Shown here one piece after another: positions 33,414 through 59,207 of a DNA stretch of 64,000 nucleotides. Numbering within the stretch: position 1 is the stretch's first letter; each line of letters starts with the position of its first letter. A program made the translations under genes and the position numbers. The DNA comes from Alphaproteobacteria bacterium (GTDB lineage Bacteria > Pseudomonadota > Alphaproteobacteria > Bin95): positions 832,001 through 896,000 of the forward strand of contig OZ219786.1 in assembly GCA_964291285.2 (NCBI GenBank), given 5' to 3'. Under the pieces are notes generated by a model. The model saw only the letters and a program-made list of their open reading frames with translations, searched no databases and was not told where the DNA came from.

Positions 33414-34319
33414 ATGAAGGTTCTGGTGGTCGGGGGAACCGGCTTTATCGGGCGCCGGCTGGTGCCGCTGCTGGCGGCGCGGGGCGCGGAGGTCGTCGCG
33501 ATGGACATCGCGCCCGAGGCGGCGGATTTCGGCGACATGGCCGAGACGCGCAAGGGCGACGTGACGCAGTTCGACCAGGTGATGGCGCTCGTGGCGGAGG
33601 TGAAGCCCGACCGGCTGGTCAATCTCGCCTATTTCATCGGCGAGCTGCCGCCGCGCATCGCGCTCAAGCTCGACATTCTCGGCATGGGCAACTGCTTCGA
33701 GGCCGCCCGGCTCGGCGGCGTCGCGCACACCGTCTATGCGAGTTCGCTTGCGGTCAGCGGCCTCCAGAGCCATTTCGGCGAGCGCGCGGCGGACGAGGAC
33801 GACCACCGCTACGGTGACAACCAGTACGCCATGCACAAGATTTTCAACGAGTGGCAGGCGCGCGACTACACGGAGAAATACGGCATGGCGATCACCGGCA
33901 TCAGGCCGGCGAACGTGACCGGGCCCGACAAGATCTACGGGTCCATCGACCATGTGCGCTGCGTCACCTTCCCGGCCCGCGGCGAGCCCGTCAGCTTCCC
34001 CCATGCCGACGCGATGCGCGCGCCCGTCCATGTGGACGATGTGGCGGAGGCGTTCGCGCGCGTCTCGCTGGCCGAAGCGCCGCAGCACCGGATCTACAAT
34101 ACGGGCGGCCACGCCATCTCGATGGGCGATCTCGCGGCGCTGGTGCGCGAGTTCCTGCCGGACGCCGACATCTCCTTCGAGCAGGCGACCGGCGGGCGGG
34201 CCGGTTCCGGCAATTTCCTGATCGACAACAGCCGCCTGGTGGAGGAGTTCGCCCTGCAATACGCCCCCTTCCGGGACCGCGTACGCCAGATCATCGAGGC
34301 GGTGCAGGCGGAGGGCTGA
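33414..34319 (+). CDS. NAD-dependent epimerase/dehydratase (extended SDR)
   Basis: GGTGFIG, YASS, YAMHK catalytic YxxxK, HVDDVA. Confidence 0.9.
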   Translation: MKVLVVGGTGFIGRRLVPLLAARGAEVVAMDIAPEAADFGDMAETRKGDVTQFDQVMALVAEVKPDRLVNLAYFIGELPPRIALKLDILGMGNCFEAARLGGVAHTVYASSLAVSGLQSHFGERAADEDDHRYGDNQYAMHKIFNEWQARDYTEKYGMAITGIRPANVTGPDKIYGSIDHVRCVTFPARGEPVSFPHADAMRAPVHVDDVAEAFARVSLAEAPQHRIYNTGGHAISMGDLAALVREFLPDADISFEQATGGRAGSGNFLIDNSRLVEEFALQYAPFRDRVRQIIEAVQAEG

Positions 34320-34399
34320 GGCGCGGCGCGCGGCCGCGGCACCTCTGTTCGTCACCCCGGGCCGCGATCCGGAGGCCGGGGTGGGCTATGTGCCGCGAG

Positions 34400-35010
34400 C
34401 AAAATATGAATGATTTCTAATATTTCTGACTTTTGTTCGTATTTTGATCTTGACATCTGGCGGATTGTGATATGATGGTCCCCAGGGAAGCGGACTCCGG
34501 AGCCGCGTCCCCGGGTGCCGCACGGCCGAGCGGCGCCAGTTTTTGAAAACCCGTGAGAAGCCGACGGGAGACGTGTGTCCTCTGCCTCGCGCGCGCAATC
34601 AGGCGCGCGAACCGCGCCGCCGCGACACGCGCGCCGGCACGCGCACAGGCGCCCGCGCAGGATACGCGCGGAAAAGGGACCCGCTCCCCGTCGGAGCAAG
34701 GAGGAACGATGACGGCAACCGACCCCCAACTGGCGGCGATGCCGGCCGAAAGGCTCGCGCCGGCCGCGGCCCTGGCCAGCGCCTGTGCGGAGGACGACCG
34801 CGCCGTCCGGGGCGACGGACAAGGGCCATGGGGCTGCGCCAGCCCGCAGACGGAAGGGAAGAGTCATGAAATGGAGCGTTATGCCCGGACGGGCTGCAGG
34901 GCATGCCCGCCGCACATGCAGATCATGACATCTCATGACATTCCATGACACATGGCGAGGGAGGTCCGGCGCGCCTCATGACAAAACATGACATCTCATG
35001 ACATCTGCCG
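34400..35010 (+). repeat. Dispersed structured element, copy A (promoter + conserved leader + CATGACA arrays)
   Basis: Colinear similarity to the reverse complement of about 43950-46090: tccggag hairpin, gccgac.ggaga, gcgcaatcagg.gcgcgaaccgcgccg, gatacgcgcg, aggaacgatg, catgcagatcatgacat. Confidence 0.8.
34435..34476 (+). promoter_or_regulatory. Sigma70-like promoter of element A with adjacent LexA-box-like site
   Basis: GTTC-N7-GATC at 34435-34449, TTGACA 34450-34455, TATGAT 34471-34476 (short 15-nt spacer). Confidence 0.45.
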
Positions 35011-35062
35011 GGGAGGCCGGGCAGCCGCGCTTTCCGCGGCCTTTGCCGGAACCCGGTCCGGT

Positions 35063-36145
35063 TCAGCCGCGCAGCGCCGGGAGGACCTCGGTCTCGATCA
35101 GCTGCTTCGCGACCGGCCCGGCGCCGCCTCTGGCGCTGCGCCAATTGCCGTTGACGACGATCTTGTCGAGCCCGAGTTCCCGCAGCCGGAGGAGTCGTTC
35201 GAGAACCCGCTCCGGCGGTCCGACAGCGGCATATTCCCGGATAAACGCCGGCGTCAGCACCGCCGCCTGGGCAGACTCGTTCTCCGTGTGCCGATGCATG
35301 TCGTAGGCCCGGCGCATCGCCTCCATCACCGCGCGGCTCTCCTCGGAGAGCGGGCCGCTCGTCCGGCCGTGCATGACGGCGAAGCGCGCGAAGACGGTCA
35401 GGTTGCCGCGCACCATGTCCTGGGCGGTTTCCATGTCGGGGTGGCAGCCGCAGGAGACGTAGGCGCCGAAGCGCAGGCCCTCCGGATCGAGGCCGGCCGC
35501 CTCGCGCGCCGCCCGGGCGGTGGCGATGCCCCAGGCAATGCGCTCCGGCGAGGCGCCGAGCGCGAACATCACCCGGTCGGCCCGGCGCGCCGCGATGGCG
35601 ATAACCTTCGGTCCCGTCGCCGCGACCTCGACCGACGCCTTGCCGTCCCGCGCCGCAGCGCCGGCCATCCACCGGATGCGGCTCGCCTCCGGCGTCTCGG
35701 CGAGCGCCAGCGTCTCCACCGGCGGCGCGGATGCGGCCGGGATATCGACCAGCTCGTCGAACGCCACCTGGCCGCCCGACAGATAGGCCTGGAGGTGGGT
35801 GAGATAGCGCTCGAACTGCCCGAGCCGCGCCGGGGCCCGGCCGAGATGGGCGAGCGCGGAATCGCCGCGGCCGATGCCGAGCGTCATCCGCCCGCGCGAG
35901 ACGCTGTTGACCGTGGCCGCCGCCGAGGCCAGCACCGCGGCCGTCCGCGTGACCGGATTGGAAACGCCGGTGCCGAGCCTGAGGCGCCGGGTCACGGTGG
36001 CCGCCATGGCCAGCGCGACGAAGGAGTCGGCCGCGAGGTTCTGGGAATCGACGACATTGACGCCGTCCCAGCCGCTTTCCTCCAGCGCCCGCGCCTCGTG
36101 CAGAATGCCGCGCGGCGCGGGCATGCAATTGGTCCAGATTTCCAT
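35063..36145 (-). CDS. LLM-class (luciferase-like) flavin-dependent oxidoreductase
   Basis: GWDGVNVVDSQNL, LGTGVSNPVTR, GIGRGDSA, VAATGPK. Confidence 0.9.
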   Translation of the reverse strand: MEIWTNCMPAPRGILHEARALEESGWDGVNVVDSQNLAADSFVALAMAATVTRRLRLGTGVSNPVTRTAAVLASAAATVNSVSRGRMTLGIGRGDSALAHLGRAPARLGQFERYLTHLQAYLSGGQVAFDELVDIPAASAPPVETLALAETPEASRIRWMAGAAARDGKASVEVAATGPKVIAIAARRADRVMFALGASPERIAWGIATARAAREAAGLDPEGLRFGAYVSCGCHPDMETAQDMVRGNLTVFARFAVMHGRTSGPLSEESRAVMEAMRRAYDMHRHTENESAQAAVLTPAFIREYAAVGPPERVLERLLRLRELGLDKIVVNGNWRSARGGAGPVAKQLIETEVLPALRG

Positions 36146-43877: not shown

Positions 43878-44231
43878 GGGTGAAGCACCTTTCGGTTGTC
43901 CGGGGCGGAGGGAGTCGAGTTTGCGGCCCCGGGGGCGGAGGGCCAAGCGCGATGTGTCATGTGGATGTCATGGAATGTCATGTTCTGTCATGCGGGCCTG
44001 TCTCCGCCCCGGCCGTTTGCAAGGCATTGCAGCCTCCTTGTCGGTCTGCGGTCCCGGATGCCCCGTTGCCGGAGGAGCGCTCCTCCCGCGCGCATAATGC
44101 GCGTCCGGCCGCGCGTGCGCGCACGTGTGCGCGAAGCGGCGGGGCCGTCCCCTCCACCGTGGATGTCATGTTGTGTCATGGAGGCACGCCGCGGGACCTT
44201 CCTCCCGAGACGCCATCCCGATCCTCTTCCC

Positions 44232-44368
44232 ATCGTGCCCGGACTTGTTCCGGGCATCTCTCCCTGGACCGTTGCAGCGGCGGAAGTGGCAAGTCCGGGC
44301 ATGACGAATGGGAGACGGGGCGGGCCATCCTTCGATACGCGGCCGGCGCCGCTGCTCAGGATGAGGGG
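44232..44368. repeat. REP-like palindromic remnants inside element B
   Basis: tgcccggacttg ... caagtccgggca inverted pair (about 44236-44301); tccttcgatacgc...ctcaggatgaggg half-repeat matching 6307-6363. Confidence 0.65.
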
Positions 44369-44799
44369 AGGGGCCCGCTCCACGGGAATGTCACGAAATG
44401 TCATGATCTGCATGCGCGCGGCGCATATCCTGTGGTCGTTTCAGACATGAGACCACCGTTTGTCTCCCCGCCTCGCCTGCGAGGGAAGGCCGGGGCGGGA
44501 GGCCCTCTCTCGATCCGGCACGGCCTTGCCGGAACGCGCGGCCGCCGGGCCTTCTTTCGGCCCCCTCCGCAGGCGGGAGAGGCGCTTGTGTGGCGGCAGG
44601 CCATCCTGTCGAAGCCGTATTCGCCTGCATCCCGCACATCGTTCCTTCATCCCGTTTCGTTCCCTTTCATTCCCCTCTCCCCGCCGCCGGCCTGCCCGGC
44701 AAGCGGGACCCTGATTCGCGCGTATCGCGCGGGCGCGGGCGGGTGTCGGCGCCGGCGCGGTTCGCGCACCTGATTGCGCCTGCGCCTGCCCGCGCATAA

Positions 44800-45927
<1,128 letters not shown>

Positions 45928-46146
45928 CCGACAACACAGTCGCTCTCCTGTCGGCTCCCAAAGGTATTTTTCGCGTCGGCGCCAACGCGAAAGACGAAGC
46001 GGCCTCCGGATACCGCTTCGTCCGATTCAATATAACATATGATTTAGATATGTCAATTCATTTTGAGATTTATTGCCAATAATTCGAACAAATGCGTTTG
46101 CCGATCCCGCCGTTGCACGAACGGCCCATACAGACCGAATCCTGGC

Positions 46147-58532: not shown

Positions 58533-58692
58533 GCGAAGCTGCCCGGTGCGTTTGGCTAACGAAATCCCGGGGCCGTTACCGAAACTCCAGGGAGTTGTCC
58601 CTGCCGGAGTCCTGGCTTCGGCACACGACGCCCACCTCAATGGCGAGGGTCCCGGAGGATTGGCTTGAGACCGACGGCCAGGGCGGCTTCGC
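58533..58692 (+). ncRNA. ssrS: 6S RNA
   Basis: Terminal stem gcgaagctgccc/gggcggcttcgc; cccggggcc...agggagttgtccctg...cacacgacgcccacct motifs; zapA-ssrS-ygfA synteny. Confidence 0.88.
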
Positions 58693-59207
58693 TTGCCTCC
58701 GCCAAGGCGGCCATGCGGCGCGAAATGCTGCGGCGGCGGGCAGGCTTTCCGCCGGCAGCGCTTTGCCCCGACGCGGCGCTCGAAGGGTGGTGCATCGCGG
58801 GCTACTGGCCCGTCAGGGGGGAAATCGACCCCCGCCCGCTGCTGCAGGCGCTCGGCCGGCCGGTGGCGCTGCCGGTGACGGGACCGCAGGGCACGGTGCT
58901 GGAGTTCCGCCTCTGGCGGCCGGGAGACAGGATGGTGCCCGGTCCCTTCGGCATCATGGAGCCGACGGGACCGGCGGCGGAGCCGGACGTGCTGCTAGTG
59001 CCGCTGCTCGCCTTCGACGCCCGCGGCAACCGCCTCGGCTACGGCGGCGGCTATTACGACCGGACGATTGCGGCGACGGGCGCCCTTGCCATCGGTGCGG
59101 CCCATGCGGCACAGGAGGTGGCGGCCGTGCCCGTCGGGCCGGACGACCGGCCGCTTGCCGGCGTCCTGACGGAAACCGGCCTCGGATTTTTCCAGCGGAG
59201 AGCGTGA
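58665..59207 (+). CDS. ygfA: 5-formyltetrahydrofolate cyclo-ligase (start 58665 TTG or 58713 ATG)
   Basis: GYWPVRGEIDP, VPLLAFD, RLGYGGGYYDRT. Confidence 0.92.
   Translation: MRPTARAASLASAKAAMRREMLRRRAGFPPAALCPDAALEGWCIAGYWPVRGEIDPRPLLQALGRPVALPVTGPQGTVLEFRLWRPGDRMVPGPFGIMEPTGPAAEPDVLLVPLLAFDARGNRLGYGGGYYDRTIAATGALAIGAAHAAQEVAAVPVGPDDRPLAGVLTETGLGFFQRRA

Follow-up and report, generated by a model that had tools for sequence, protein, structure and literature searches.

In phage P1, the pac site carries clusters of a hexamer on both sides of the point at which the DNA is cut. Phage-inducible chromosomal islands use a small terminase (TerS) of their own to redirect the packaging of a helper phage, a background to which lateral and pseudo-pac transduction also belong, and the gene transfer agents of Alphaproteobacteria keep a phage-derived packaging protein in the chromosome. 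Modular intergenic repeats and miniature inverted-repeat transposable elements (MITEs) include the pneumococcal BOX, the neisserial Correia elements and REP/BIME. According to PMC4737164, the pac site of phage SPP1 contains direct repeats in three sets, which span the promoters and the beginning of terS. Here we set beside these systems a small cassette, which we call copy A, found at about 34404-35004 on the + strand of a 64,000-nucleotide window of an alphaproteobacterial genome (G000:C2:832001-896000, where G000 is the genome of the window, other G numbers are genomes of relatives and L numbers are extracted loci; positions without a contig refer to the window). Copy A is a decayed, internally deleted member of a genus-wide cassette family; it belongs to the second of three classes of encoded protein and is no longer competent to code. 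That copy A belongs to this family, that it has decayed and that intact copies encode a TerS-type protein are points that we hold with high confidence. The reading that we favor for the family as a whole, tentatively and by analogy, is that the repeat arrays closing each cassette serve as a pac-like cis site of that protein.

The host genome comprises 6.13 Mb in five contigs at 68% GC, and we searched it with nhmmer profiles of three modules, namely A (promoter plus hairpins), B (GC-rich leader) and D (a pre-array block plus arrays of the heptamer CATGACA). The profiles gave 56, 98 and 116 matches, respectively, which were grouped into 115 loci, and the modules followed the order A, B, D on one strand in all of them. 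A previous reading of the window from its letters alone (the sequence-only reading) had noticed two copies and suggested a genome-wide family; the family is indeed genome-wide, and the second copy in the window is real (copy B, 43947-46060, minus strand). The most frequent architectures were ABD (38 loci), BD (31), D (12), B (10), ABDD (9) and AB (5), followed by BDD (3), A and DD (2 each), and ABDDD, BDDD and AD (1 each). When 12 of the BD copies were aligned, the promoter and two hairpins proved to be present, too diverged to be caught by profile A. A complete unit consists of a promoter, a 5' leader of ~230 nt, a small gene and a 3' CATGACA block, and units range in size from 0.45 to 1.4 kb. 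The distance from B to D at the 83 loci with both modules was at most 150 nt in 36 cases, 151-400 nt in 26, 401-900 nt in 11 and more than 900 nt in 10, a spread that indicates few coding units and many internal-deletion derivatives in which both ends have been kept.

Judged by DNA similarity, 13 of 16 other species of the genus contain the family, and it was not detected in any of 24 genomes from other genera. A blastn search of a plasmid collection gave no match to the family, and a literature search found no description of it. Related records and the metatranscriptome runs used below are labeled as coming from sponge-associated, uncultured Alphaproteobacteria.

Open reading frames (ORFs) translated from the Shine-Dalgarno sequence after 97 of the B matches fell into three classes. 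The class-1 protein starts MPVIDPAVALSTRQEAFCRHY and is 329 residues long; the genome holds 10 full-length copies and 2 shorter matches to Terminase_2, as well as at least seven more class-1 ORFs that are deletion derivatives of 51-99 residues with an unchanged N-terminus. Residues 11-70 match Pfam Terminase_2 (PF03592; E-value 1.2e-10, 42.6 bits against a cut-off of 26.1) and PHROG 51 (4.4e-12), the Terminase_2 match spanning only profile positions 2-61 of 141. An AlphaFold2 model built from 26 sequences had a mean predicted local distance difference test score (pLDDT) of 60.6 and was confident over residues 11-106 and poor elsewhere. As regards the central, ring-forming oligomerization core of small terminases, the modeled monomer showed helices at 52-90 and 93-106 with block-mean pLDDT values of 67-88. 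The C-terminal half was long, acidic and of low confidence, with a K/R-rich tail. The best Foldseek match was the DNA-binding domain of SF6 G1P (4zc3/2cmp), with a target-normalized template-modeling score of 0.82, a root-mean-square deviation of 0.8 A and 40% identity at an E-value of only 0.16, and an hmmsearch profile search of PDB sequences recovered the same SF6/SPP1 DNA-binding domain at an E-value of 6e-6. We conclude that the class-1 N-terminus is a small-terminase helix-turn-helix (HTH) of the SPP1/SF6 type.

The class-1 ratio of nonsynonymous to synonymous substitution rates (dN/dS) was 0.21 over residues 1-110 and ~0.5 over the remainder (60 ORFs from this genome and its relatives), and these values below 1 point to purifying selection on the full-length protein genes. 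All 12 Terminase_2 matches in the genome lie inside cassettes and stand alone there. Relatives of class 1 in the protein collection number 310; where one of them bears a name, which is rare, it is "terminase small subunit." Within the genus, a TerS-like gene was found in 12 of the 16 other species; three species free of elements are also free of the gene, and in one relative (G008) elements are present and no TerS-like gene was found. A distant TerS-like family occurs in another family of the class (G033; for example, L147 404-1273), where 9 matches correspond to ORFs of 246-316 residues with the same build, an N-terminal terminase HTH followed by an acidic, proline-rich tail.

Class-2 proteins start MTATDPRP and reach 192-234 residues when whole; 18 ORFs start in this way, about six of which are near full length. 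Their 46 homologues are annotated as "hypothetical protein" at best and have no Pfam domain. The class-2 alignment shows a conserved N-terminal domain plus one or two DYDGSEDEFHY...TPEF.AW motifs, and the AlphaFold2 model, confident over residues 20-130 only, consists of a helical hairpin, a beta-hairpin and a long helix, for which Foldseek found no PDB match at an E-value of 0.001 or better. No similarity was found between class 2 and the TerS-like protein. The class-3 mini-ORFs (14 copies, 31-42 residues) start MPKTRSR and show no clear coding constraint, with a ratio of nonsynonymous to synonymous polymorphism (pN/pS) of 0.62 in frame against 0.86 and 0.69 out of frame. Across the element proteins, no catalytic domain was found with Pfam, PHROGs, NCBIfam or PADLOC, the last two of which gave no matches at all, and the models are helical or disordered.

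Copy A preserves the layout of this family around a remnant of a class-2 gene. Direct reading of the sequence bore out every feature that the sequence-only reading had listed for it, with a single correction, namely that the spacer between the promoter-like hexamers is 15 nt long, compared with the canonical 17. An AT-rich tract (~34395-34449) leads into these hexamers, and its part at 34404-34449, the 5' part of module A, is approximately where the similarity of young copies begins (13-copy alignment and breakpoints of full-length copies). The hexamers themselves, TTGACA at 34450-34455 and TATGAT at 34471-34476, are near-identical across the 13 aligned copies, and diverged copies retain TTGAC or TTGCA and TATGAT-like hexamers. 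A TG at 34468-34469, one base 5' of the -10 hexamer, makes this an extended -10. A promoter consensus scan reported no promoter in copy A because it requires a spacer of 16-18 nt.

Downstream, on the same strand, lie hairpin 1 (GGGAAGCGG at 34485-34493 pairing with CCGCGTCCC at 34503-34511, around a conserved TCCGGAG-type loop) and hairpin 2 (GGTGCCGC at 34514-34521 pairing with GCGGCGCC at 34530-34537), which is followed by TTTTT so that the feature extends to 34545. The GC-rich leader of module B occupies 34546-34700 and includes a long-range stem (34561-34570 with 34684-34694), part of the minimum-free-energy fold, and two blocks that are near-invariant in the leader alignment (34593-34618 and 34661-34681). 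A Shine-Dalgarno sequence, AAGGAGG, kept in the aligned copies, is found at 34698-34704 and precedes an ORF of 79 codons from the ATG at 34709 (34709-34948), the stop codon of which (34946-34948) lies inside the third CATGACA. Residues 1-30 of this ORF are the class-2 N-terminus (hhalign probability 97%, E-value 8e-11, 83% identity over 30 columns), the other 49 residues are unrelated to the class-2 family, and the 13-copy alignment shows an internal gap relative to longer copies. The earlier description of a throwaway ORF fits copy A, in which only those 30 residues match class 2, and does not fit the family, which contains intact protein genes. The proposal that copy A is a non-autonomous cassette also stands, in the sense of an internal-deletion derivative that has both ends and a remnant for an ORF.

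Module D of copy A spans 34878-35004. Its conserved pre-array block (34878-34923) is followed by array 1, with three CATGACA at 34924, 34934 and 34944 (34924-34950), a GC-rich spacer (34951-34976) and array 2, with three more at 34977, 34987 and 34997 (34977-35003), both arrays having been read directly in the sequence. The window as a whole contains 16 CATGACA, compared with 3.8 +/- 1.9 in shuffled sequence, and none of 100 shuffles reached 16. The neighbors of copy A are convergent, an NAD-dependent epimerase gene ending at 34319 (+) and a luciferase-like monooxygenase gene ending at 35063 (-). A small palindromic repeat, GTCACCCCGG...CCGGGGTGAC, lies at 34345-34390 and recurs beside and within several copies; it looks like a separate REP-like family.

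Over the genome, CATGACA occurs 901 times on the two strands, compared with 317 occurrences expected from base composition, and 252 pairs of same-strand neighbors are exactly 10 bp apart. We counted 162 arrays, 155 of them within element loci, with two repeats in 71 arrays, three in 86 and four in 5. Almost every ORF terminates within the array, as ...HDKT* or ...MTKHDIP*, because the 10-bp period puts TGA (and ATG) into all three frames. We also extracted 80 loci encoding class-1 relatives. In the close relatives, most whole loci are arranged with A and B before the gene and D after it. Among 16 distant loci (L119-L134; 44-61% identity), 8 have no A or B match, yet an NTGACA array of the D type follows the ORF with a 10-bp period; the array of L125 reads CATGACAAAACATGACATTTCCTGACA, and in L120 six NNTGACN units spaced by 10 bp are accompanied by a second array. 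Judged from these sequences, the pairing of gene with array predates the leader. One mini-ORF copy (G000 C1:293087-293469) and the intact TerS cassette of L125 both appear to lie directly after a gene ending ...F(R)(E/D)FCIGK, which we read by eye as mnmE; the next gene in the relative is mnmG, which is elsewhere in this genome. The site after this candidate mnmE may be old and orthologous.

Under the reading that we favor, intact copies would make the 329-residue TerS-like protein, which would act in trans and bind the heptamer arrays that end every unit, copy A included, much as TerS acts on the direct repeats of pac. The heptamers, spaced one helical turn apart, would constitute the cis site, and with over 100 of these sites the chromosome would be dotted with points to which a phage large terminase could be recruited, so that packaging could start there or be diverted. 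Copy A itself has kept only the cis parts (promoter, leader and arrays). We read the arrays as pac-like because the gene-array link persists in relatives with no more than 44-58% protein identity and because a near-identical array lies upstream of a terS gene in an unrelated phage contig. That array came to light when viral contigs were scanned for triplets of CATGACA with a 10-bp spacing, a search that returned 10 loci. In one of these (L156, 38% GC), the array CATGACAAAACATGACATTACATGACA matches the commonest form in the genome at 26 of 27 positions, lies ~230 nt upstream of a Terminase_2/PHROG 51 terS and overlaps the end of the preceding ORF, as in the cassettes. Another (L155) starts with a ~335-bp array of ~33 ATGAC-type 10-bp units, followed by an ORF of 177 residues and then a large terminase gene. 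Further viral arrays adjoin genes for an HNH endonuclease, ParB-domain proteins, a replication initiator or an integrase. For 4 of the 10 arrays, a contig end is no more than ~1.1 kb away, and 2 of the 10 loci are giant-virus bins. An 18-nt word of two repeats had 5 matches in the viral contigs, 4 of which, with two repeats each, are consistent with chance.

A number of observations weigh against this interpretation of the arrays. It leaves the second protein class, the conserved leader and the spread of the copies unexplained. The 10 viral array matches could be ordinary 10-bp tandem repeats, and the adjacency of 2 of them to terminase genes is suggestive and not significant. The TerS of L156 has no BLASTP similarity to the class-1 protein (hhalign probability 50%, E-value 1.6e-4), and IMG/VR contained no close class-1 relative, its 3 matches being 34% identical and covering the HTH only. 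The distant multicopy TerS-like family of G033 showed no TGACA array in the one locus read. PMC4737164 reports that the DNA-binding domain of SF6, when isolated, discriminates little between sequences in binding pac DNA and that the box repeats made little difference; repeats adjacent to terS therefore need not be the recognition element.

It also counts against the favored reading that no large terminase gene adjoins any cassette. The sole large terminase (TerL; G000:C2:89785-91365) is found in 3 of the 16 other species of the genus, compared with 13 of 16 for the elements, and the cassette nearest to it is ~12.6 kb away. Its surroundings form a phage-like cluster on the minus strand (G000:C2:85300-92400; L137 11332-18389) that encodes a DUF5906 protein, the large terminase, an HNH endonuclease, an HK97-type capsid protein and a portal protein, and no small terminase gene adjoins it; PF03354 and PF03237 had no match in the genome. 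We considered a gene transfer agent or resident phage as a dedicated partner and rejected it, as this lone TerL/HNH/capsid/portal cluster is sporadic in the genus.

We consider it improbable, though worth stating, that the family represents a selfish "packaging-site" element of an undescribed kind, in which a minimal terS-plus-pac cassette, together with the more than 100 deletion derivatives of it, scatters sites for the initiation of packaging by phage terminase across the chromosomes of sponge-associated alphaproteobacteria. If this were true, an infecting pac-type phage would either become a high-frequency generalized transducer of host DNA or be disarmed by decoy sites, and the promoter-proximal hairpins and leader would time the production of the TerS-like protein.

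The alternative that survives best, although we regard it as unlikely, is a MITE-like transposable element, the ends of which (leader hairpins and heptamer arrays) would be bound by a recombinase encoded elsewhere, with the TerS-like protein as an accessory or as cargo. Such an element would account for the deletion derivatives found here, in which both ends of a longer coding element are preserved, and for the occurrence of elements in G008, which has no detected TerS-like gene. It would also suit the dispersal of 115 intergenic copies that show no bias in replication strand (62 versus 53 copies) and no real bias in the orientation of their neighbors (the downstream gene was co-oriented at 47 of 83 loci and opposed at 36). 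Moreover, species differ in what lies 3' of one and the same epimerase gene: a full or partial element with at least A and B in G007, G014, G012, G010 and G005, D alone in G002 and G016, and no element in G008, G011 and G015. No neighbor gene recurs in a fixed position beside the elements. The flanks of copy A are not syntenic in relatives, and several species have an element beside one flank or the other in separate places, as expected if copies serve as recombination breakpoints.

What a transposable element should leave at its edges was, however, not seen. The similarity between full-length copies starts ~50 nt 5' of the -35 hexamer and stops at the last heptamer or up to ~50 nt beyond it, and neither terminal inverted repeats nor target-site duplications were found at the breakpoints of five pairs of full-length copies or at three candidate empty sites. 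Of 10 candidate empty sites derived from the flanks of relatives, none was precise. The longer elements encode no transposase that we could detect, as their proteins lack a catalytic domain. In its strict sense, the term MITE does not apply to the family. Full-length copies are 82-96.8% identical over ~1.3-1.4 kb, and because copies differ by 3-18%, nothing points to recent activity in this genome. One relative carries a TerS cassette within a 1.68-kb segment (L103 1052-2736) that has 16-nt inverted repeats, AGTGTCNCNGTTTGAC, at its bounds and is flanked by a ~22-bp direct duplication of a hairpin-forming target. This arrangement is unique among the 143 loci compared, and its motif is not linked to the cassettes of G000, where a similar one delimits an unrelated element of 3.1 kb.

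A second alternative holds that the family consists of structured RNA genes or cis-regulatory leaders, with the RNA as the conserved product and the ORFs and arrays as secondary, and we judge it somewhat more doubtful than the transposable element. It draws on the retention of promoter and leader where the ORF has decayed, on the two near-invariant leader blocks and on the prediction of two hairpins immediately 3' of the promoter for almost every one of 67 non-redundant copies. Hairpin 1 is the best supported of the helices: in 54 sequences (53 distinct), 91.7% of cells pair, compared with 52-65% in slid controls, and compensatory changes affect 4 of its 8 pairs, with 13 double-change cells versus 4.9 in shuffles, a number that none of 500 shuffles reached. 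A weak signal of co-variation comes from the long-range stem, which is perfect in some subfamilies, class 1 pairing CCGACAGGC with GCCTGTCG, and is missing from the mini-ORF copies; on average, the duplex of 5' and 3' leader parts was more stable with a leader's own partner (-14.55 kcal/mol) than with a foreign one (-12.68 kcal/mol), and none of 2000 permutations was as good, in a test that relatedness inflates.

These local signals do not extend to the leader as a whole. Its minimum-free-energy fold includes all three proposed helices, but at -114.4 kcal/mol it is only slightly more stable than shuffled sequence (-105.9 +/- 4.8 kcal/mol; z = -1.76), a stability equaled or exceeded by 11 of 200 shuffles. 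RNAalifold, applied to a MAFFT alignment of the 67 leaders, returned 12 pairs and -8.35 kcal/mol, with a covariation term of -0.03. The covariation check proposed with the sequence-only reading has a divided outcome, being clear for hairpin 1 and weaker for the long-range stem, with an almost empty RNAalifold consensus. The strongest conservation in the leader is of primary sequence, in its two near-invariant blocks, and distant relatives keep the gene and the array, not the leader. We do not regard the family as primarily a long structured noncoding RNA, one of the two options of the sequence-only reading, since full-length members carry protein genes under purifying selection.

The sequence-only reading could assign the element to no named family, and no Rfam family matched it. 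At the gathering score, Rfam identified only a 6S (SsrS) RNA gene in the whole window (58533-58693, +; 62.4 bits against a threshold of 46.4), a search of 34380-35080 at E-values up to 10 gave nothing relevant, and nine further loci yielded a tRNA only. In four metatranscriptome runs, available as contigs only, summed depth was high over the leader and arrays, a value to which more than 100 copies contribute and in which DNA carry-over is possible; the contigs also run into DNA upstream of the promoter, which counts against the RNA explanation. We tried and rejected the idea of an attenuator leader with an intrinsic terminator. Hairpin 2 of copy A scored as terminator-like in a scan, but its T-run is not conserved across copies; other subfamilies have GGAACGA or an A-run in its place. 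In one relative, a promoter-hairpin-leader module without an ORF or arrays of its own (L052, G015:C1, 1034-1312) is fused to the start codon of the epimerase gene, the same gene that lies to the left of copy A; the corresponding site in this genome has a 10-bp gap.

This fused leader suits the RNA explanation and also a third, according to which the elements are portable regulatory cassettes domesticated by the host, with an outward promoter and leader, a three-frame stop and operator arrays for an HTH regulator. The leader of G015 appears from its sequence to be placed to drive a host gene, and the 10-bp period that gives TGA and ATG in three frames, with nearly all ORFs ending in the array, is in line with a cassette of this sort. 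At 28 D-terminated elements, a co-oriented downstream frame opens at the array, and the genes themselves start tens to ~170 nt later. Three elements (C1:361580, C1:641739 and C3:708711) end 85-102 nt upstream of co-oriented tRNA genes (Glu, Gly and His), although 3 of 115 against ~1.45 expected is at chance level. The near-equal numbers of co-oriented and opposed downstream neighbors given above argue against regulation of host genes as the general role, copy A points toward the 3' end of a gene that converges on it, and we think this explanation very unlikely.

Finally, two clusters of short direct repeats with a 10-bp phase are reminiscent of iterons or of centromeres of the parC type, and ParB-domain genes (L154, L157) and a replication-initiator gene (L154) are neighbors of some viral arrays, but a role of the arrays in replication, partition or nucleoid organization is scarcely credible for more than 100 sites spread evenly over all five contigs without strand bias, in cassettes that have no Rep or Par gene.

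Copy B shows what else has happened to these leaders. Its locus (C2:875947-876821) has the architecture BDDD and, on the minus strand, comprises a diverged promoter and hairpins (45961-46060), the remainder of the leader (44701-44821) and three array blocks (~44381-44450, 44164-44180 and 43955-43992). The leader is split by an IS110-family insertion sequence of ~1.13 kb on the + strand (~44816-45944; transposase ORF 44896-45927), identified by both Pfam domains of that family, DEDD_Tnp_IS110 (4.5e-24) and Transposase_20 (5.3e-20). The genome has 13 copies of this IS110 element, and every left junction, read off the flanks, carries a GGGAG-type word. Five of the 13, the others being at C1:640178-641318, C1:858910-860051, C3:1276513-1277658 and C2:1147406-1148482 of G000, lie at the same point of family leaders, after CCGAC(G/A)GGAG, so the repeat is a favored IS110 target, as expected for a sequence-guided IS110 element. 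Two other insertion sequences with the common end CCCGACTTCCGCAACTCGG, one of which encodes a transposase of 599 residues, break the leader at one exact point, after GCGCGAA(T/A/C)TAG, at no fewer than eight loci of G000 (C1:257955, C3:196185, C3:941317, C4:199366, C2:676626, C3:201388, C3:685815 and C3:831662). This point is a second insertion hot spot in the cassette leader.

Even on the most ordinary reading, the cassettes are a genus-wide repeat family that accounts for an appreciable part of the intergenic DNA and carries consensus-like promoters. At least two insertion sequences land in the repeat preferentially, genomes of different species are rearranged at its copies, and it likely breaks short-read assemblies, many contigs of relatives ending inside it. 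Its intact genes, annotated as "terminase small subunit," could be mistaken for prophage remnants. If the arrays are recognition sites, the chromosome would have been seeded with more than 100 pac-like sites by a tiny element without an integrase or transposase of its own, which would bear on DNA exchange and on the response to phages in uncultured animal symbionts.

The known systems differ in how closely they approach these cassettes. Gene transfer agents share the alphaproteobacterial host and a chromosomal, phage-derived packaging protein, whereas no conserved head-tail cluster accompanies the elements, the only TerL/capsid/portal cluster being sporadic in the genus. Phage-inducible chromosomal islands are likewise chromosomal, non-phage elements that encode a TerS together with a putative cognate site, but the islands are single-copy, 10-15 kb long, integrase-bearing and inducible, whereas the cassettes are 0.45-1.4 kb long, have no integrase and number ~115. 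BOX, Correia and REP/BIME elements resemble the cassettes in being high-copy, intergenic and modular, in carrying promoters in some cases, in having deletion derivatives and in being favored targets of insertion sequences; the cassettes differ from them in lacking terminal inverted repeats and target-site duplications and in encoding a TerS-like protein, not a transposase. The pac site of phage P1 shares the plan of two clusters of a short word, here 3 + 3 heptamers around a spacer of ~26 bp, whereas the word, its spacing and the protein family differ. In contrast to the G1P and pac (pacL-pacC-pacR) system of SPP1/SF6, the cassettes adjoin no large terminase, portal or capsid gene, have 10 intact gene copies per genome and more than 100 sites, carry their repeats 3' of the gene rather than 5', and encode a protein with a long, acidic, low-confidence C-terminal half and a K/R-rich tail. 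It is nevertheless this system that offers the best structural and sequence match to the N-terminal HTH, and in it too, according to PMC4737164, terS sits on the DNA next to a promoter of its own and to short direct repeats arranged in sets.

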